A DNA stretch of 32,000 bases from Candidatus Saccharimonadota bacterium (GCA_002421785.1 DIRZ01000003.1:60001-92000), one strand, 5' to 3'. Positions 23,856 through 32,000 are shown, numbered from the stretch's first letter. Made by a program: numbers and translations. The notes: generated by a model not told the origin, from the sequence alone.

Positions 23856-25103
23856 CTAGAACGACTTAGGGACAAATGTATGGGCGTGACCACGCGCGCC
23901 ACCACGGCCAGTACGACCAATGCGGTGAATGTAGTCTTCGTACACCTGCGGGGTATCGAAGTTGATGACGTGGCTGACATTTGGGATGTCCAGGCCGCGT
24001 GCTGCAACATCGGTCGCTACAAGGACGCTGACTTTGCCAGATTTGAATGCATCAAGGGCGCGCGTGCGCTGGCTTTGCGATTTGTTTCCGTGAATCGCCG
24101 CTGCGGCAATCTCGGTTTTGTTCAGCTTGTCTGCCAGACGCTGAGCACTAAACTTTTTGCCACAGAACACAAGGACCTTGTCGTAGTTGTCTTTACGCAG
24201 CATATCAATCAACAAGTCATATTTGTGGTCCTGGCTCGTAAACTCAACGACGTCCTGCTCGACATGGTCGCTTGTTTCGGACGTCCGGACACTGACTGTC
24301 ACCGGCTTGTCGAGGAACTGCGCGGTGATAGTAGCAATTTCGGGAGTAATTGTTGCACTGAAGAAGAGCGTTTGTCGTTCTTTTGGCATTTCGGCAACGA
24401 TGCGGCGAATGGGCGGCAGGAAGCCCATGTCAAGCATGCGGTCTGCTTCGTCCAGCACCAGTGTGGTCATGTTGCCACAGTGGAGTTCGCGGCGATCAAG
24501 CAGGTCGATGATACGACCAGGGGTGCCAATAATGACGTGTGGGCGACGGCGAAGGTCACGAATTTGACGGTCAATGTTCATACCGCCGACAACAAGCGTT
24601 GAATAGAGATTCATGCCCTTTGAAAAGGCACGGAATTCGGCATCAATTTGTTGCGCGAGCTCGCGGGTTGGCGAAACAATCAGAACACTTGGTCGTACCG
24701 ATACGCCACGAAGACGTTCGATGATTGGCAGCAAGAAGGCGGCGGTTTTGCCCGTACCAGTGTTTGCAAGCCCGATTACGTCGTGGCCGTTCAGAATAGG
24801 TTCGATTGCCTGATCCTGAATAGGACTTGGGTTGACATAGCCCTTCGACTCAATATTGAACTTCAGCTCGGGGCCAAAGGCAAAGTCGGCGAACGTGTGC
24901 TGTGGCTCGTAGGCAACTTCAGCAGCTTTCTCGACGGATTTGTTGATATATTTGCTTGGGTGAATCGTGGATGATTTACCACGGTTTGAGCCACGACCGC
25001 CCTGTTGTGGGCGGGAGAAGTTACGACCGCGAGTGCCACCGGGGCGTGGGCGGCCATTAAACGTTGGACGGGCAGATGAACTACCCCTGTTGATATAGGG
25101 CAT
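23856..25103 (-). CDS. DEAD-box ATP-dependent RNA helicase
   Basis: 415 aa with motifs GTGKTAAF, PTRELA, DEAD, SAT and HRIGRTGRGG. The N-terminal extension is RG-rich. Confidence 0.92.
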   Translation of the reverse strand: MPYINRGSSSARPTFNGRPRPGGTRGRNFSRPQQGGRGSNRGKSSTIHPSKYINKSVEKAAEVAYEPQHTFADFAFGPELKFNIESKGYVNPSPIQDQAIEPILNGHDVIGLANTGTGKTAAFLLPIIERLRGVSVRPSVLIVSPTRELAQQIDAEFRAFSKGMNLYSTLVVGGMNIDRQIRDLRRRPHVIIGTPGRIIDLLDRRELHCGNMTTLVLDEADRMLDMGFLPPIRRIVAEMPKERQTLFFSATITPEIATITAQFLDKPVTVSVRTSETSDHVEQDVVEFTSQDHKYDLLIDMLRKDNYDKVLVFCGKKFSAQRLADKLNKTEIAAAAIHGNKSQSQRTRALDAFKSGKVSVLVATDVAARGLDIPNVSHVINFDTPQVYEDYIHRIGRTGRGGARGHAHTFVPKSF

Positions 25104-25356: not shown

Positions 25357-25806
25357 TCAGATTAAATACACCATGAGAAGCATCGTAGTGCCGACTGCTG
25401 CGTAGCCGATACGGTAGGTTCGCGCGTGAAAGCCGGAGTGAACGCGGCGAAGCGTAAGGATGAGGCCGCTGAGGACAAAAAACTGTCCATAGCCAAAGAT
25501 ATTATGAATAACGGGAAACGTATCGAAAGGGAATGCCCCAACACCCACCAAGCATATGGCAACCACCACCAACGCCGCTTGTAGCTGCCGTGCGCCGCTA
25601 CTGCTGTGTCGGCGACGCATTTCGTCAGCTATGCGCGTGGCCAGCAATATCAGCACCATGGCGGCGAGTATCATCGTCCCATTGAATATAAACGACGCAG
25701 TGCTGTTGCCTTCGCCGAGCCTGCTAAGGTGCCAGTTTGCCCACTTCGTGTCCTGCGTGAGAAGCATACTGAGTGCAAAGCCAGTTGTAATAATACCCAG
25801 GAGCAC
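25357..25806 (-). CDS. hypothetical 4-TM membrane protein
   Basis: 149 aa with a GTG start and an in-frame stop 14 codons upstream. It lies 56 nt downstream of the Nudix gene and may be the last gene of that operon. Confidence 0.5.
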   Translation of the reverse strand: MLLGIITTGFALSMLLTQDTKWANWHLSRLGEGNSTASFIFNGTMILAAMVLILLATRIADEMRRRHSSSGARQLQAALVVVAICLVGVGAFPFDTFPVIHNIFGYGQFFVLSGLILTLRRVHSGFHARTYRIGYAAVGTTMLLMVYLI

Positions 25807-25862: not shown

Positions 25863-26384
25863 TCATACTGAATCTGCTGCACGCAGTATAGCGATGTCGC
25901 GGGCTTTCATCATCGCGAGGCCGGTCGCGCTACCATCTTCGTCTAGAGTGTCACTACTTTCAATCCATTCAATTGCCTGCTCGATTGTTTCCGCCCAACA
26001 GAGCTCCATACCCTCGGACTGTTCTTTTTCGGTTAGTTCAGTGCCCACAAAATCGCCCGCTAGCGCCGTGTAGCAGTACGAAATTTGGTGCATGCCGCAG
26101 TAGTAACGGTTTTCGGTCACTGTGCCAAGTTCGGCTACGTCCGTGATAGTGTAGCCGGTTTCTTCGCGAAGCTCGCGATGAAGCGCCGCGAGAATGTCTT
26201 CGTCCTCGTCTATTCCGCCACCAGGCAGTTTGTACGAACCTGTTACAGTGAAGTGCATAACAGCAATCTGATCACGATCATTACGCATCACGGCACGTGC
26301 GGCTTGCCGTGTGTAATTAACTGATGTGTCAGTGGTCTCGTGAAGCCCTATATCGTGCTGATCGAGGTCGAGAATAAGATTCAT
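25863..26384 (-). CDS. Nudix hydrolase
   Basis: 173 aa from the ATG at 26384. The Nudix box is GGGIDEDEDILAALHRELREETGY (GX5EX7REUXEEXGU). Confidence 0.85.
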   Translation of the reverse strand: MNLILDLDQHDIGLHETTDTSVNYTRQAARAVMRNDRDQIAVMHFTVTGSYKLPGGGIDEDEDILAALHRELREETGYTITDVAELGTVTENRYYCGMHQISYCYTALAGDFVGTELTEKEQSEGMELCWAETIEQAIEWIESSDTLDEDGSATGLAMMKARDIAILRAADSV

Positions 26385-26406
26385 TTTACTAATATAACAT
26401 AGACTA

Positions 26407-27078
26407 TTAGAGGGCTTTATCCCTCTTCTGAAAAAATGCTCGAAATACCGCACGGCTCCCCGTGTTTTCTTGTTTTACTTCCTCGCCCTGATCGCTGGCC
26501 AGCTCAAAATCGACCGCATCCATCATCGATACAAATGTTTCGCGTGGGAGGAGTGTTTGGGGTAGTCCTTCTTGGGTAAGAACTGAGTAGCCATCCGGCG
26601 AAGTTACTGTGTACGTATCATCCCAAGCTTTATTGGTGAATATGTTGAGTAGAACAAACCCCGAAGGCTTTGTTACTCGAGCTAACTCTTCGAGTGCTCG
26701 TACGTATTCTTCTATGGTGTTCGCTTGGTGCAGGACACCAGTCGTAACAACAATATCGAATACCTCATTATCGGCGGGAATGGCGAGGATGGAACCTTCG
26801 TGAATATCGGCAACCAGCCCGAGTGAATCCAGACGCGCATGCGTGGCGACTAGCATGCCAGGGTTAACGTCGACACTCGTTACCAGATGGCCAAGACTGG
26901 CGAGTAATTCCGAATGACGCCCGCCCCCACACCCTAAATCGAGTACACGGGCATGAGGATGAGTCTCCGTAAAATGTTCCATAAACGCTACGATTCGAGG
27001 ATCGGCTGGTTTACTTTCAAAATATCGTGTGATGTCAGGTGAATTCCAAAATTGACGCTCCGACCGTGTGATAGCCAT
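26407..27078 (-). CDS. class I SAM-dependent methyltransferase
   Basis: 223 aa from the ATG at 27078, 1 nt after the upstream stop. Motif I is VLDLGCGGGRHS; post-I is VTSVDVNP. An alternative ATG at 27102 exists. Confidence 0.8.
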   Translation of the reverse strand: MAITRSERQFWNSPDITRYFESKPADPRIVAFMEHFTETHPHARVLDLGCGGGRHSELLASLGHLVTSVDVNPGMLVATHARLDSLGLVADIHEGSILAIPADNEVFDIVVTTGVLHQANTIEEYVRALEELARVTKPSGFVLLNIFTNKAWDDTYTVTSPDGYSVLTQEGLPQTLLPRETFVSMMDAVDFELASDQGEEVKQENTGSRAVFRAFFQKRDKAL

Positions 27079-27079
27079 A

Positions 27080-28177
27080 TTATTGCTTACCTTTCTTGCC
27101 AACGGATTCTACGAGATATGTTTCCGAGAACAAAGACACATGGTAGGTGTTCATGTCTAGCTCAGCAAATTTTTTTGAAATGCGCTCAGGTTCAGAAGTG
27201 ACCGCGAAGAATCCTGGGCCCACAGATGAAAGCGAGATCATAGCAACTGCCTCGTCGTCGGCAAATGGACGTAGCTGTTCGGCAATATCATTAATTCTAG
27301 GTAACACGAACGAGCAGTTCTTGATACTGCCCATATTCCAGCGGTAATCAAAAATTAGCCTCTTACAGCTATCAAACTTGCCCAGTTGCAGGTCGGGTAA
27401 CACTTGATGCACTAGGTGGTAAGCGATGTCCTTGCCATAGTGTTCGCCGGTTGAAATGAATCCATCCATGTTGTCTTCTTCAAGCTGCATTAGTGTGCGG
27501 GAATCTGGATGCTGGAAGTCTATCGGTATACCAATGACAACTGAGTAGCGTTCCGGAAAGGCAGAGCGCATAATCGGCGTGGCTTCGCCAGCCAACACAA
27601 TAAGGCTGCCGCTGTAGTTTCCGCAAACTGCAGAACCACCGATACATTGTACTGCTACGAGTGTATCATCGCTGCCATCAAGCTCCTCCCCATGGTTCTG
27701 AGCACAGTACAAACATAACGCATGCGGATCAATAGGGCGCCCGTACAGCTCATTGATAGCTGATGCGACGGCTGCTATGGTGCCGCTGCTAGAGCCAAGT
27801 CCGCAGTGACGCAGGCTAAGTTCGTCCTCTACATCAATTTGCAAGGTATCACGAATGCCGAGGGTTTGCCGCATCAGAAGAGCTGCGTGTAGCACCAACG
27901 ACCTACGGCCGGTTCGTTCGCTTATCTCGATCTCTCGTCCCGTGAATGGTACGATACGTACACTAACTCTCTTGAAGAGAGCGACACAGACATCAATTTG
28001 ACCTGCGGTGTACACAAGTGAGTCGTTAGTTGCGATTTTAGCGGGATCGAGCGCCATTGCTTCGAGTCTCGCAGGATATTTAATACATATCGACTCCCCC
28101 TGTTTCACGGCGTTTCGGTTGATTGTACAGGTATTCGTAATAGTACCAGCCGGAAATGTTGCAACGATTTTAGGCAT
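27080..28177 (-). CDS. GHMP-kinase-fold protein, tentatively beta-RFAP synthase / C-glycoside synthase-like
   Basis: 365 aa from the ATG at 28177, with SD AAGGGAGAG and an 8-nt overlap with the upstream gene. The central motif HCGLGSSSGTIAAVASAINELYG is GHMP motif II-like. The N-terminal YPARLEAMALDP resembles the (T/S)PSR(L/I)HxxLxD motif I recall for beta-RFAP synthases. Confidence 0.5.
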   Translation of the reverse strand: MPKIVATFPAGTITNTCTINRNAVKQGESICIKYPARLEAMALDPAKIATNDSLVYTAGQIDVCVALFKRVSVRIVPFTGREIEISERTGRRSLVLHAALLMRQTLGIRDTLQIDVEDELSLRHCGLGSSSGTIAAVASAINELYGRPIDPHALCLYCAQNHGEELDGSDDTLVAVQCIGGSAVCGNYSGSLIVLAGEATPIMRSAFPERYSVVIGIPIDFQHPDSRTLMQLEEDNMDGFISTGEHYGKDIAYHLVHQVLPDLQLGKFDSCKRLIFDYRWNMGSIKNCSFVLPRINDIAEQLRPFADDEAVAMISLSSVGPGFFAVTSEPERISKKFAELDMNTYHVSLFSETYLVESVGKKGKQ

Positions 28178-29177
28178 GCTGCTCTCCCTTGGCGTCTTGT
28201 AGTCGGCGTAGGTTCTCCTGGGTCTTGTCGATGAGCACGTCAAGAATATCCGGCGTGTAGGTGCCGCTCCCTACGCTGTCGTCGCCCCGTAACTTGAAAT
28301 TATCTTGGGCGATTCGTCGGTGTGGGAAACGAAATTTCTTGAGCTTTTGGAATATAGCTATCGCAGCATCTTGACCCGCACTATCATTACCCTCAATAAG
28401 TAAATCAACGACGCTCCGACCATTTTGCCGATCAGTGCATTGCTGTATCCATGCGCGCTGGTCAGGGCTTAAATAGCGAACATTGTCGGCGTAGTAATCC
28501 ATATATACCTTGTCTGCACTGCCTACTCCCCACAGCACATAATCTGTTGCGATTAGCTGTAGTTGCGCACCACCCGCACCCGCATAGGAGGTTCCCCCTA
28601 TTTCCACGGCATCAAAATATGGCCGCAACTCATTGGTAAAGTATGTCGCAGTTACGCCACGACGTACTGCAATAATTGACTCAATGAGAGTATCGAGACT
28701 CTTATCAATAGCAGCGAGTCCTGTTTGAATGTCATTTTCCGCGAACACTCGCATGGCATGTTCGGCATCAGCAGAGCTTGTTCGAACAGAGTCAATAAAC
28801 AGCGCTTCCGCATCGCTACCCGTAAATGAGCGTTGACGCTCATCGCTTGGGTTAACATGGGCATATGTAGTGACTGTTCCTCGTGGAACTGTGTTCGCGA
28901 TTCTCCCCAGGGCCATAAGTATGCGCTCGAAGCCATTAACTGATTCAATATAATTCTCCCCGTGACGTATCCCGGAGCTCAATATGAAATCCGAATCGCG
29001 CAGAGAGGCTAATGCATCTGCTGCTGAGAACTCGCTAGGTACCGTGTCTGTAGCGATTCCGTTTGCAATATTGCGAAGTGTGCCGACATCTGCGCGCTCA
29101 TTTATTAGCGGAAGCTCACGCAGTCGTTCGTCAAGACCAAGTGGGTCTAGCTTACGAACAGATTCATAGTCCATCAT
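28170..29177 (-). CDS. PrnB (monodechloroaminopyrrolnitrin synthase)-like / TDO-superfamily heme protein, tentative
   Basis: 335 aa. Segments NPSDERQRSFTGSDAEALFIDSVR, ELRPYFDAVEIGGTSYAGAGGAQLQLIATDYVLWG and FRFPHRRIA...VGSGTYTPDIL resemble what I recall of PrnB and the TDO proximal-His motif (WRxxH...GTGGSSG). Confidence 0.45.
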   Translation of the reverse strand: MMDYESVRKLDPLGLDERLRELPLINERADVGTLRNIANGIATDTVPSEFSAADALASLRDSDFILSSGIRHGENYIESVNGFERILMALGRIANTVPRGTVTTYAHVNPSDERQRSFTGSDAEALFIDSVRTSSADAEHAMRVFAENDIQTGLAAIDKSLDTLIESIIAVRRGVTATYFTNELRPYFDAVEIGGTSYAGAGGAQLQLIATDYVLWGVGSADKVYMDYYADNVRYLSPDQRAWIQQCTDRQNGRSVVDLLIEGNDSAGQDAAIAIFQKLKKFRFPHRRIAQDNFKLRGDDSVGSGTYTPDILDVLIDKTQENLRRLQDAKGEQHA

Positions 29178-29219
29178 ATGTTGGGGCCTCTCTCCACTGC
29201 GTGGATCTGTTTTTTATTA

Positions 29220-29270
29220 TTTATACAGTAGAAGCACTTGTTTGTCAATCGATAAAAAATATGTTATATA
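29220..29270. promoter_or_regulatory. back-to-back divergent promoters sharing one -35 region
   Basis: Plus strand: TTGTCA (29242-29247), 17 nt, TATATA (29265-29270). Minus strand: TTGACA (29243-29248), 17 nt, TATAAA (29220-29225). The two -35 hexamers overlap by 5 nt. Confidence 0.6.
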
Positions 29271-29302
29271 TAGCTTAATATAAACGCACATAAGGAGTAG
29301 GT

Positions 29303-29926
29303 ATGATATTTGTAACCGGTTACCATGCTTCCGGTAAATCATTCCTCGCACGCAAGCTCGCATCAGATTTTAATTTATTTCATGTCGAAACAAGCGCAAT
29401 CGTACAAGCAGCTCATGCAATTGATGCTCCTGAGCGAAGTCTTGGCGATTGGGCTCGCGATATGGAGCATCGTTTCGGGGAGGAATTCTTTGATGACATG
29501 ATCGTCGATGCCGCTGCGCAGGAGTACGTTTGCGAGCTTGCCAGCGGCAGGCAATACAATGATATCATTATTACAGGAAATCGTTCTCTTCGTGGTATAC
29601 GATATGCGGCGTCTGGTTTGTCTGAAAAAATTCCGTTTCTAAAACCCGAGGCACATATTCTATATATTGATGCTGACGAGTCTGTTGCGTACGAGCGGTT
29701 CAAATCTCGAAATCGGCATGAGGGTGATGCGACCATGTCTCTCGAGGACTATCGTGAAATAACTCTCGACGAAGACCAGCGGGGCCTCACTGAGATTCGA
29801 GATAGTGCTGACTATTGCATTACAAATAACGGGACACTCGAGGATCTCGTATACCGAGCCAGTGAAATGCTGGGCGAGAGCGCCGTCCTTGCACGTGAGA
29901 CATATCGCGACTATCGTCATGTATAA
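29303..29926 (+). CDS. P-loop NTPase, nucleotide/nucleoside kinase-like
   Basis: 207 aa with a strong SD (AAGGAG). The Walker A motif is GYHASGKS, at the extreme N-terminus as in small-molecule kinases. ITGNRSLRGI follows. Specificity is unknown. Confidence 0.55.
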   Translation: MIFVTGYHASGKSFLARKLASDFNLFHVETSAIVQAAHAIDAPERSLGDWARDMEHRFGEEFFDDMIVDAAAQEYVCELASGRQYNDIIITGNRSLRGIRYAASGLSEKIPFLKPEAHILYIDADESVAYERFKSRNRHEGDATMSLEDYREITLDEDQRGLTEIRDSADYCITNNGTLEDLVYRASEMLGESAVLARETYRDYRHV

Positions 29927-29956: not shown

Positions 29957-30517
29957 ATGAGTATTGCGTACGTTACCGGTAATCAATCGAAGTTTCAAAA
30001 CGCTACTGCATTTTTGCAGACAGTAGGCGTTACCATTCATCAAGCTAGTGTGTCTGTCGATGAAATACAGGCAGGCACCGGCATAGAGGTAGCCATACGA
30101 AAAGCACACGACGCTTATAATCAGCTTCAGGAGCCGTTGTTTATCAATGATGCTGAGTGGGCAATTCCTGCGCTTGGCGGCTTCCCGGGGCCATACATGA
30201 AATATATAGTCGGCTGGTTGACGCAGCAGGATCTACTGAAACTCATGGAGGAGAAGTCGGACCGTAGCCTAATACTTCGCGATACCGTCGTATATTACGA
30301 TGGCTCCGTAGAAAAGGTCTTTACCCACGAAGTTCATGGTAAAATTCTTACATCACCTCAGGGCGAGCCCCGTGGACCATTTGTCACGCAGATATTTAGT
30401 CTACGCCAGGATGGTAAGAGTATTGCAGAGGACACAACTATAGGGTTTAGTGAGGATGAGGCAATACTCTGGGCGGAGTTCGCAACATGGCTAAAAACGC
30501 ATATCCCCCAGGCCTGA
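29957..30517 (+). CDS. Ham1/RdgB-family non-canonical purine NTP pyrophosphatase (ITPase-like)
   Basis: 186 aa with SD GGGAGG. Family motifs: VTGNQSKF (TGNxxK), VDEIQ and INDAEWAIPALGGFPGPYMKY. Confidence 0.75.
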   Translation: MSIAYVTGNQSKFQNATAFLQTVGVTIHQASVSVDEIQAGTGIEVAIRKAHDAYNQLQEPLFINDAEWAIPALGGFPGPYMKYIVGWLTQQDLLKLMEEKSDRSLILRDTVVYYDGSVEKVFTHEVHGKILTSPQGEPRGPFVTQIFSLRQDGKSIAEDTTIGFSEDEAILWAEFATWLKTHIPQA

Positions 30518-30589
30518 GACCCTAACTTCTAAGTATGTAGTGTGGCCGACAATTTTGTGTCGACTAGCTATTTCGGTTATGATATAATC

Positions 30590-32000
30590 ATGCGCCTACC
30601 TAACAACCCGACCATCTATGAAATACACACTGCCGCGTACCTAAACGAACTCGCCGTCCGCGACAAAACGAACATTTATCTGGACACAATCCCCGATGAT
30701 GAGCTGAATCGACTCATGACTCTCGGCATTGATGCCGTTTGGTTGATGGGCGTTTGGCAACGGAGTGCTGCGGCTGTGGCTGTGGATATGGCAAATGAGG
30801 GGCTGCAGGCAGAGTTTCGCGCAGTCCTGCCAGATTTTACTCCAGAAGATGTCATCGGTTCTGCCTATGCCGTGCAGGATTATACTGTTGATGCTCGGTT
30901 TGGGGGCGACGATGCATTAGCGCGACTACGTGAGCGACTTTCTCATCGCGGAATTGGCCTGATTCTCGATTTTGTACCCAACCATACCGCCCCAGATCAT
31001 GTGTGGACACGTGAACATGTAGACTACTACATTCATAGCGACAGCAATGCCGCTCTGCGTGAGCCGGATGCCTATGCTGCTGTTGGTGATCACAGTATTG
31101 CCATGGGGCGCGATCCTAACTCAGCCCCCTGGCCAGACGTGTTACAGATGAATGCGTTTTCACCAGGCTACCGCAAAGCAACGGTAGATACTTTAGGGCG
31201 TATTGCATCGATGAGCGACGGCGTTCGCTGCGACATGGCCATGTTGATGCTAGATGATGTCGTACAGCGCACGTGGGGACAGCTCGCAGGTGAGCCGCTC
31301 GCAACCACCTATTGGCAGGACGCCACGCATGCTGTGCGCGAGCAGCACCCTGACTTTACCTTCATCGCCGAATGTTACTGGGACACTGAGCGTACGCTGA
31401 TTGAGCAGGGCTTCGACTACTGTTACGACAAGACACTCTACGACTACCTTGTTGCGAATGATCCGGCCGGTGCGTGCGACTACCTCGCGCGAACGGCTGA
31501 CATCCAGTCGCACATGCTTCATTTCGTCGAAAATCACGATGAGCCTCGAGCAGCAGCTAGGCTCCCCCTTGACCAATCGATGGCGGCTGGCGCAATAACA
31601 GCAACATTGCCTGGGGCAAGCTTGCTCCATCATGGGCAAGTAGAGGGTAAACAGATAAAAATACCCGTACAGCTGGGGCGTGGGGCCCATGAACTGCCCT
31701 GTTCGGCTACTCGGGATTTCTACGGTAAGTTATATGCTTGGCTCAAGGAGTCAAATATTCGAGATGGAACCTGGTCACCACGCGCAACCCAAGATTCGGC
31801 AATCATTACCTACGAGCTGCAGCACGAGCATACCGTCGCCATGCTGCTGGTTAATTATTCGGAGACGCGCACCACCATTGATCTTCCCATTCCCATAGCT
31901 AACTATAGTGATGTGCTAGCGGACAACGACGGCGCGCCCATCATAGTTCAAGCGGCCGCCGACAAGCAGCTTCAGCTCGGGCCATGGCAAACGCGGCTGC
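30590..32000 (+). CDS. GH13 alpha-amylase-family glycoside hydrolase, C-terminus beyond the right edge
   Basis: My translation is open from the ATG at 30590 to the window end (470 codons). GH13 regions: LILDFVPNH (I), GVRCDMA (II), FIAECYW (III), FVENHDE (IV). TATGAT (30578-30583) lies 6 nt upstream of the ATG and there is no SD. Confidence 0.85.
   Translation, partial: MRLPNNPTIYEIHTAAYLNELAVRDKTNIYLDTIPDDELNRLMTLGIDAVWLMGVWQRSAAAVAVDMANEGLQAEFRAVLPDFTPEDVIGSAYAVQDYTVDARFGGDDALARLRERLSHRGIGLILDFVPNHTAPDHVWTREHVDYYIHSDSNAALREPDAYAAVGDHSIAMGRDPNSAPWPDVLQMNAFSPGYRKATVDTLGRIASMSDGVRCDMAMLMLDDVVQRTWGQLAGEPLATTYWQDATHAVREQHPDFTFIAECYWDTERTLIEQGFDYCYDKTLYDYLVANDPAGACDYLARTADIQSHMLHFVENHDEPRAAARLPLDQSMAAGAITATLPGASLLHHGQVEGKQIKIPVQLGRGAHELPCSATRDFYGKLYAWLKESNIRDGTWSPRATQDSAIITYELQHEHTVAMLLVNYSETRTTIDLPIPIANYSDVLADNDGAPIIVQAAADKQLQLGPWQTRL

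Follow-up and report, generated by a model that had tools for sequence, protein, structure and literature searches.

In the 32,000-nucleotide window analysed here (Candidatus Saccharimonadota bacterium, GCA_002421785.1 DIRZ01000003.1:60001-92000; positions are counted from its first letter), the open reading frame (ORF) at 27080-28177 on the minus strand was confirmed as a real gene, which starts with ATG and encodes a GHMP-fold protein of 365 aa. This protein is best described as belonging to a new subfamily, with a new set of partners, on the branch of the GHMP superfamily that holds ForT and beta-ribofuranosylaminobenzene 5'-phosphate (beta-RFAP) synthase. We propose, with a probability of about 0.6, that it is a ribosyltransferase which uses phosphoribosyl pyrophosphate (PRPP) to modify the product of the PrnB-type heme enzyme encoded next to it. 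To our knowledge, two activities are known on this non-kinase branch, beta-RFAP/RHP synthase and ForT/PyfQ, and both make a C-C bond from PRPP.

Placement of the GHMP protein

The GHMP protein is unassignable from its own sequence alone, and family profiles and the fold were needed to place it. GHMP_kinases_N (PF00288) is the sole domain seen by Pfam (38.9 bits, gathering score 22.3), and this match is undiscriminating because non-kinase members of the superfamily carry the domain too; the C-terminal domain GHMP_kinases_C gave no Pfam match. Among the NCBIfam models, the protein remained below the cut-offs for homoserine kinase (31.9 bits against 194 and 30.9 bits against 168), archaeal shikimate kinase (30.5 against 127) and IspE (16.9 against 364), and also below those of the beta-RFAP synthase equivalog NF040726 (21.1 against 328) and the beta-RFAP synthase subfamily TIGR00144 (19.2 against 113.5). 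The original prediction, made from the sequence of the window, had proposed kinship with beta-RFAP synthases and ForT and a comparison of TIGR00144 with kinase models. In this comparison the kinase models came out slightly ahead (31.9 and 30.5 bits against 19.2), with all scores far below threshold, and the protein falls outside the curated beta-RFAP synthase family since it scores far under both cut-offs. The kinase matches are confined to motif II, and the NF040726 alignment extends over residues 95-337 (profile positions 67-302). When 38 family members were scored, the homoserine kinase models (best E 2e-13) and NF040726 (best E 1.2e-13) were about equal, TIGR00144 followed with a best E of 2.2e-11, and no member reached either beta-RFAP cut-off. 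The PDB sequence searches were equally ambiguous, with homoserine kinases as the best single-sequence match, and a phmmer search of the PDB with only the C-terminal half was uninformative.

These scores bear on the main alternative, in which the protein would be a genuine ATP-dependent GHMP kinase whose loop has diverged and which phosphorylates a hydroxyl of a metabolite derived from PrnB or from the Peptidase_U32-family (U32) protein described below. The Pfam result and the homoserine kinases at the top of the single-sequence searches speak for such a kinase; however, the NCBIfam matches are local to motif II and reach about 30 bits where the cut-offs are 127-194 or more.

Profiles of the whole family gave a clearer placement. 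The family, here called A1, has 731 matches at 90% clustering, mostly from Saccharibacteria and other Patescibacteria. An exhaustive HMMER search of 1.84 billion representatives with the family profile gave 325 matches at E <= 1e-3 and 111 at E <= 1e-30, so that at least 111 clusters (50% identity) match the profile at the latter level. Beyond the family proper, the search reached beta-RFAP-synthase-like proteins of 329-351 aa (A2) at E 1e-20 to 1e-25. Of the eight full-length A2 proteins scanned, seven have a beta-RFAP synthase model as their top match (51-92 bits), and the eighth (P0257) scores slightly higher on homoserine kinase. In comparisons with hhalign, A1 matched A2 at 100% probability (E 3.2e-40, 335 columns), A2 matched ForT at 98.3% (E 1.2e-14, 288 columns), and the merged A1 and A2 profile matched ForT at 98.7% (E 3.6e-15, 289 columns). 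The direct comparison of A1 with ForT gave 71% (E 3.7e-5) over the N-terminal 121 columns only, and the values for the kinases were 35% for E. coli ThrB (E 3.9e-4, 217 columns), 28% for IspE (E 6.2e-4, 85 columns) and 5% for GalK (E 7.4e-3, 177 columns). The ForT sequence used comprised residues 11-153 and 185-337, rebuilt from HMMER alignments.

The predicted structure agrees with the profiles. The AlphaFold2 model of the GHMP protein (pLDDT 94.1, pTM 0.94) was compared with the PDB by Foldseek, and the top three matches are ForT entries (6YQQ, 8AOZ and 8AP0; E 7e-17 to 7e-16, TM 0.65-0.67 / 0.73), with homoserine kinases behind them (about 1e-13, TM 0.53-0.59) and superfamily decarboxylases at E 1e-12 to 1e-11. 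The GHMP phylogeny that had been suggested as a check pointed the same way: in a rough neighbor-joining tree, built from 353 columns with three kinases and 100 bootstrap replicates, the family is monophyletic (100/100), and it groups with A2 and ForT apart from ThrB, GalK and IspE (76/100). Taken together, the profiles, the fold and the tree support the proposed kinship with beta-RFAP synthase and ForT at the level of the fold and the clade, and they count against the kinase alternative by grouping the family with ForT and A2.

Two further parts of A2 deserve mention. One is a large methanogen family (P0287-P0384) of about 357 aa, for example L095:6001-7071 from Methanoplanus limicola, which automatic annotation calls 'GHMP kinase' or 'beta-RFAP synthase'; the ten members scanned all score 52-103 bits, below 113.5 and 328, and the family appears to be an uncharacterised paralogue, not MptG. 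The other is an A2-type gene (P0271) that forms a pair with a small P-loop kinase-like gene, the overlapping upstream gene of 193 aa (L096:5423-7038 for the two), a pairing also found at L094:1087-2707. The L096 pair lies in a setting like a defence island, flanked by Lamassu LmuB, an Old/GajA-like nuclease and a DUF4062-NACHT protein, and PADLOC has no model for it.

Active-site residues and alternative reactions

The original prediction rested on a glycine-rich loop reading HCGLGSSSG and an N-terminal stretch reading YPARLEAMALD, and both are present, at residues 124-132 and 34-44. Residue conservation was determined over 85 homologues from five major lineages (35-55% identity), and equivalences were taken from the merged-profile alignment. 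R37, H124, G126, G128 and S129 are invariant (85/85) and P35 is kept in 84; motifs I and II are thus not chance, since they are kept across these homologues. The P-x-R-Φ...D motif I of the beta-RFAP/ForT branch is present, and so is the His directly before the glycine-rich loop (H124), where homoserine kinase has Gly. In ForT, the PRPP ligands are R19, H99, the loop amides, T106, R135, S139 and S142, E211 is essential, and S21, S174, K263 and Q266 are acceptor ligands (PMC8183095, PMC9832568); R19 bridges the PRPP phosphates, and Arg135 is a 5'-phosphate ligand essential for PRPP binding (PMC8183095). In MTH0830, D19, R26 and H98 are important (PMC6787355). The equivalent residues of the GHMP protein are as follows.

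R37: equivalent to ForT R19; 85/85
D44: equivalent to ForT D28 (MTH0830 D19); Asp in 59/85, otherwise N or Q
H124: equivalent to ForT H99 (MTH0830 H98); 85/85
G126: equivalent to ForT G101; 85/85
S131: equivalent to ForT T106; 78/85
E233: 1-2 columns from ForT E211; 85/85

As to the last of these, hhalign sets ForT E211 opposite L232, beside the invariant E233, in a low-confidence region of the alignment. The family also has invariants of its own (H97, Q177, G180-G181, Y278-R279 and N287-C288) and a further conserved element, S317-S-V-G-P321.

Several observations weigh against a PRPP-dependent ribosyltransferase. The protein scores marginally higher on kinase models than on beta-RFAP synthase models, and the bridging A2 group is itself uncharacterised and under the curated cut-offs. 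ForT Arg135 aligns with the variable Q160 (Q in 51, S in 19, A in 7 and R in 3 of the 85); judging from conservation, the invariant R279, or R91 (83/85), could substitute for it. A 15-residue insertion (N161-H-G-E164-E165...) with invariant N161 and E164 is absent from ForT, and E164 aligns with the 'YGE' Glu of homoserine kinase 1fwk, which we take to be a Mg2+ ligand following the motif II helix (Glu130 in M. jannaschii). E164 favours neither side, however, because A2 also has Glu there (N-F-V-E). The P-x-R of motif I occurs in galactokinase too (PGRVNLIGEH), so that motif I does not exclude kinases and the loop-preceding His and the clade placement are more discriminating. D44, moreover, is not invariant, though its equivalent D19 is important in MTH0830.

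Compared with the GHMP kinases (ThrB, MVK, IspE and GalK), the protein has the superfamily fold, the GxGSS loop, the AINEL helix, and the SSVGP motif III in common, and its E164 aligns with the homoserine kinase Glu; it differs in matching them over motif II only, in having His for Gly/Ser before the loop, in the lack of a GHMP_kinases_C match and in its place on the non-kinase branch by profile, fold and tree. The loop-preceding His, invariant here and found in ForT and A2 as well, is a further point against the kinase alternative. Because the Glu is retained, Arg135 is missing and the bridging A2 group is uncharacterised, we consider a kinase unlikely but give it an appreciable minority share of the probability.

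The remodelled active site (the NHGEE insertion, the lack of an Arg135 equivalent, and the family's own Y278-R279 and N287-C288) raises another alternative, in which an enzyme of the ForT branch uses a different activated phosphate ester, such as a nucleoside triphosphate (NTP) or another sugar diphosphate, or carries out an ATP-dependent decarboxylation or elimination like mevalonate diphosphate decarboxylase. It would suit the superfamily decarboxylases among the Foldseek matches and the fusion of Ham1, an NTP-binding fold, to the GHMP domain at one locus (L052). On the other hand, PRPP is used by every characterised member of the nearest branch (PMC8183095, PMC6787355), R37 and H124, the equivalents of residues that hold the PRPP phosphates in ForT, are invariant, and there is no positive evidence for another donor. 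We regard this alternative as improbable, less likely than a kinase but more likely than an outright beta-RFAP synthase.

The comparison with known enzymes of the branch is consistent with a PRPP-dependent ribosyltransferase of a separate subfamily. ForT and PyfQ, the PRPP-dependent C-glycoside synthases of formycin and pyrazofurin, share the GHMP fold and include the closest solved structure; R37, H124, G126 and S131 match R19, H99, G101 and T106 of ForT, E233 lies near E211, and the ForT gene likewise adjoins those for enzymes that make its aromatic substrate. Unlike ForT, with which it has only 17-18% identity and a weak direct A1 profile similarity, the GHMP protein has no equivalent of Arg135 and no conserved equivalents of K263 and Q266, carries the 15-residue NHGEE insertion and has a motif I two residues shorter. 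Its partners also differ (PrnB or U32, methyltransferase, Ham1 and nucleoside monophosphate (NMP) kinase), as do the lineages in which it occurs, which include the Candidate Phyla Radiation (CPR), DPANN and Firmicutes.

The beta-RFAP/RHP synthases (MptG; MJ1427 and MTH0830) resemble the protein in motif I and in the His before the loop (H98 in MTH0830), and the family's nearest sequence neighbours are RFAP-synthase-like paralogues. A bona fide MptG, working in the synthesis of a methanopterin-type cofactor, would account for the weak full-length likeness to NF040726 and for the automatic JGI names of related proteins. However, its curated thresholds are widely missed (19-21 bits against 113.5 and 328), the D19 equivalent is Asp in only 59/85, the partners are others (PrnB or U32, methyltransferase and Ham1), no methanopterin genes lie nearby in the loci examined, and the acceptor is expected from PrnB or U32 chemistry, not to be p-aminobenzoate. 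The family is also found in Saccharibacteria, Streptomyces and Clostridia, none of which is known to us to make methanopterin. Curated thresholds and gene context effectively refute this reading, and we leave it almost no probability.

The operon in the window

The GHMP gene lies within a same-strand operon, and a divergent pair of genes stands upstream of it.

25863-26453, minus strand: NUDIX hydrolase, last gene of the same-strand operon; its likely start is an internal ATG near 26384
26407-27078, minus strand: class I S-adenosylmethionine (SAM)-dependent methyltransferase (Methyltransf_11/25, UbiE/UbiG-like, by family models)
27080-28177, minus strand: GHMP-fold protein, 365 aa; its family is uncharacterised and falls on the ForT / beta-RFAP-synthase branch
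28170-29177, minus strand: PrnB-type heme enzyme, 335 aa (Pfam PrnB, PF08933, and PDB matches)
29178-29302: divergent intergenic region of 125 bp between the PrnB-GHMP-methyltransferase-NUDIX operon and the kinase-Ham1 pair
29303-29926, plus strand: P-loop NMP-kinase-like protein, divergent (UPF0200 / AdkA-like by family profile)
29957-30517, plus strand: diverged Ham1/ITPase-family non-canonical NTP pyrophosphatase, scoring 112 bits where the cut-off is 203

The overlap of 8 nt that had been claimed between the start of the GHMP gene and the end of the PrnB-like gene is exact. At the junction 'cag cAT Gcc TAA', which holds the PrnB-like stop and the GHMP ATG, ATGCCTAA is common to both genes, and AAGGGAG stands a few bases 5' of the ATG. 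The same ORF extended from a TTG start would reach 28243; the N-termini of homologues (M-x-K-T-D-F...) fit the ATG at 28177. On the other side, the methyltransferase ATG (27078) lies 1 nt past the GHMP stop on the same strand, and the NUDIX gene comes next.

The upstream gene is PrnB-like, as the original prediction had it. Its product scores 90.3 bits on Pfam PF08933 against a threshold of 27 (E 1.4e-25), and it matches solved PrnB structures near full length (9dfg, 2.4e-38; 2v7i, 1.1e-36). It keeps the proximal heme His (FRFPH) and the equivalents of substrate-binding residues of FbPrnB, namely the GG pair, the Ser319 equivalent, the G-S-x-x-Y motif and the Tyr104 equivalent; besides the last, the residues that hold the substrate carboxylate in FbPrnB are kept. 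From these residues, the window homologue probably binds an alpha-amino acid such as tryptophan in the manner of PrnB. It is thus like the PrnB of pyrrolnitrin synthesis in being a full-length homologue with the heme ligand and amino-acid-binding residues kept. What sets it apart is that a GHMP enzyme and a methyltransferase are coupled or fused to it, and that U32 and an aminotransferase take its place at 31 loci. None of PrnA, PrnC and PrnD was found among the scanned window ORFs or the loci examined. For the divergent kinase-like gene, the family profile matched the AdkA-like / UPF0200 structures 3h0k/3lw7 over the full length (2.5e-18), followed by adenylate and UMP/CMP kinases.

In the divergent region (29178-29302) no sigma-70-like site stood above background, and a scan for promoters and terminators gave background levels only. 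The window holds no Rfam families or tRNAs, and searches of plasmid and phage collections gave no matches. A defence role for the window cassette is unsupported, and PADLOC has no model for the GHMP, PrnB, Ham1 or U32 proteins.

Further out in the window, a DUF998/DUF7103 membrane protein (25357-25806, minus strand) follows directly 3' of the NUDIX gene, with the same orientation; it could export or import the cassette product, or could be unrelated. An ORF of 415 aa at 23856-25103 (minus strand), judged from its translation only, is like a DEAD-box RNA helicase, and its N-terminal tail, about 45 residues long, is rich in Arg, Gly and Ser. The roughly 1.5 kb past Ham1 (30518-32000) has no gene-like ORF longer than 146 aa and a G+C content of up to 55%, and it may hold a gene that runs past the window end.

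The cassette across genomes and its predicted pathway

A scan of one genome per species found 80 loci, and the ORFs called in 84 non-redundant loci were searched with iterated hidden Markov models; partners were counted within 5 kb of the GHMP gene. The loci come from Saccharibacteria, many other Patescibacteria, DPANN archaea (Pacearchaeota and Woesearchaeota), Streptomyces (about 16 species), Nocardia, Micromonospora, Clostridia, Bacilli and Mycoplasmatota. Culturable carriers include Eubacterium ramulus ATCC 29099, Lachnotalea glycerini DSM 28816, Streptomyces rochei NRRL B-2410 and S. atriruber. The partners and their counts over the 84 loci are as follows.

SAM methyltransferase, adjacent or fused: 77/84, the most constant GHMP partner
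Ham1: 54/84
PrnB: 45/84
NMP-kinase-like: 40/84
GreA-like: 32/84
Peptidase_U32-family protein: 31/84
MfnA/histidine-decarboxylase-like pyridoxal phosphate (PLP) decarboxylase: 19/84
NUDIX: 8/84, not a constant cassette member
PrnB and U32 together: 0/84
Neither PrnB nor U32: 8/84 (6 on truncated contigs)

The link to PrnB is conserved across loci, even to the point of a PrnB::GHMP gene fusion (P0123, L019). Other fusions are GHMP::methyltransferase (many), Ham1::GHMP (L052) and kinase::methyltransferase (L006).

PrnB and U32 never occur together, and a HisC/CobD-like aminotransferase is present at 24 of the 31 U32 loci but at none of the 45 PrnB loci. Every Firmicutes locus with either partner has U32 (16/16) and never PrnB; these loci combine U32, the aminotransferase and a GHMP::methyltransferase fusion, to which those of Lachnospiraceae add a HAD phosphatase and two radical-SAM enzymes. 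This strict alternation suggests two routes, one oxygen-dependent and one oxygen-independent, to one intermediate, in which the U32 protein looks like an oxygen-independent stand-in for the PrnB heme enzyme. The U32 family includes the prephenate-dependent hydroxylases UbiU/V, TrhP and RlhA, and it is the analogy with these that suggests an oxygen-independent role.

The U32 protein of the cassette is divergent, with about 350-390 aa, a Pfam match of 2e-08 and no NCBIfam model (for example L027:11913-13052, minus strand, and L073:6897-7958, plus strand); the U32 loci include L014, L022, L027, L031, L036-L042, L044, L046, L053-L056, L058, L073, L076 and L080. One U32-type cassette, from Zambryskibacteria, carries a DAHP synthase (AroA-type; L038:3013-3765, plus strand; 253 bits against a cut-off of 268), which is unexpected in CPR and would fit a demand for an intermediate of the shikimate pathway, for instance prephenate.

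The actinobacterial loci (L060-L086, for example L086:219-6806 and L065:6826-13702) are compact PrnB-GHMP-methyltransferase cassettes without Ham1 and without NMP kinase, and sometimes include a Tyr/His-decarboxylase-like PLP enzyme, a GT2 enzyme, an ABC transporter, a HAD phosphatase or an APH-type phosphotransferase. This version, carried by culturable strains, resembles an orphan natural-product cluster.

A GreA/GreB-like protein of about 155-160 aa, under the GreA cut-offs and weakly like Rnk ('nucleoside diphosphate kinase regulator'), is common in CPR and Firmicutes cassettes and is not in this window (examples are L003:5095-5598, minus strand, and L022:10405-10872, L034:3982-4464 and L045:11541-12005, all plus strand). 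This partner hints at a tie of the product to RNA polymerase or nucleotide pools.

From the fold, clade placement, residue conservation, gene order, fusions and co-occurrence described above, we infer the PRPP donor, the acceptor, the C- or N-glycosidic linkage, the order of the steps and what the kinase and Ham1 do. The cassette probably converts an aromatic amino acid into a nucleotide-like compound. The PrnB-type heme enzyme, translationally coupled to the GHMP protein, would turn an aromatic amino acid, probably tryptophan, into an electron-rich aromatic acceptor. In the GHMP enzyme, Mg-PRPP would sit in the glycine-rich loop, with H124 and the loop amides holding the pyrophosphate and R37 bridging the pyrophosphate and the 5'-phosphate, and the 5-phosphoribosyl group would be moved to the acceptor via an oxocarbenium-like transition state. 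The adjacent methyltransferase would act on the same scaffold, and the product would be a nucleoside-5'-monophosphate analogue. Here, the AdkA-like NMP kinase may phosphorylate it further, with Ham1 returning it from the triphosphate level and/or the NUDIX hydrolase trimming it. The handling of aromatic amino acids is indicated by PrnB with its tryptophan-binding residues, the HisC-like aminotransferase, the MfnA/histidine-decarboxylase-like enzyme and the DAHP synthase. A ribose-5-phosphate product accounts better than a simple phosphate ester for the NMP-kinase fold, Ham1, NUDIX and, elsewhere, the HAD phosphatases. It is a speculation, by analogy with the aminopyrazole dicarboxylate of ForT, that the PrnB rearrangement yields a carboxylated aminophenyl-pyrrol(in)e which is C-ribosylated with loss of CO2.

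The partners also bear on the kinase alternative. There, the AdkA-like P-loop kinase would add a second phosphate to give a diphosphate leaving group, as in the pairing of mevalonate kinase with the NMP-kinase-fold phosphomevalonate kinase, or as with MfnE in methanofuran synthesis, and the frequency of a second kinase as neighbour (40/84) is in keeping with this. However, the actinobacterial loci lack a second kinase and some have a HAD phosphatase, and the scheme leaves Ham1 and NUDIX without a role.

The literature searched (open-access papers and bioRxiv) yielded no account of the cassette. Building on the PRPP-dependent ribosyltransferase, we put forward, tentatively and as a much less certain proposal than the ribosyltransferase itself, that the cassette is an undescribed pathway from tryptophan or another aromatic amino acid to a methylated aryl or pyrrole C-ribonucleotide, through PrnB aerobically or, at loci without PrnB, through U32 and the HisC-like aminotransferase. 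For CPR, DPANN and Firmicutes, we envisage that the AdkA-like kinase would take the product to the di- or triphosphate and that Ham1 would police it; the frequency of the GreA-like partner suggests that the product possibly acts on RNA polymerase.

If the ribosyltransferase function is true, a third and widespread subfamily with its own active-site signature and partners would extend a rare chemistry, PrnB-type heme enzymes would gain a role beyond pyrrolnitrin synthesis, and a nucleotide-like metabolite would be made by organisms whose biosynthetic repertoires are very small (Saccharibacteria, other CPR and DPANN) as well as by Streptomyces and gut Clostridia. Since culturable strains carry the family, the prediction is directly testable. 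Should the pathway also be as proposed, it would yield a new natural nucleotide analogue from episymbiotic ultrasmall microbes, Streptomyces and gut Clostridia.

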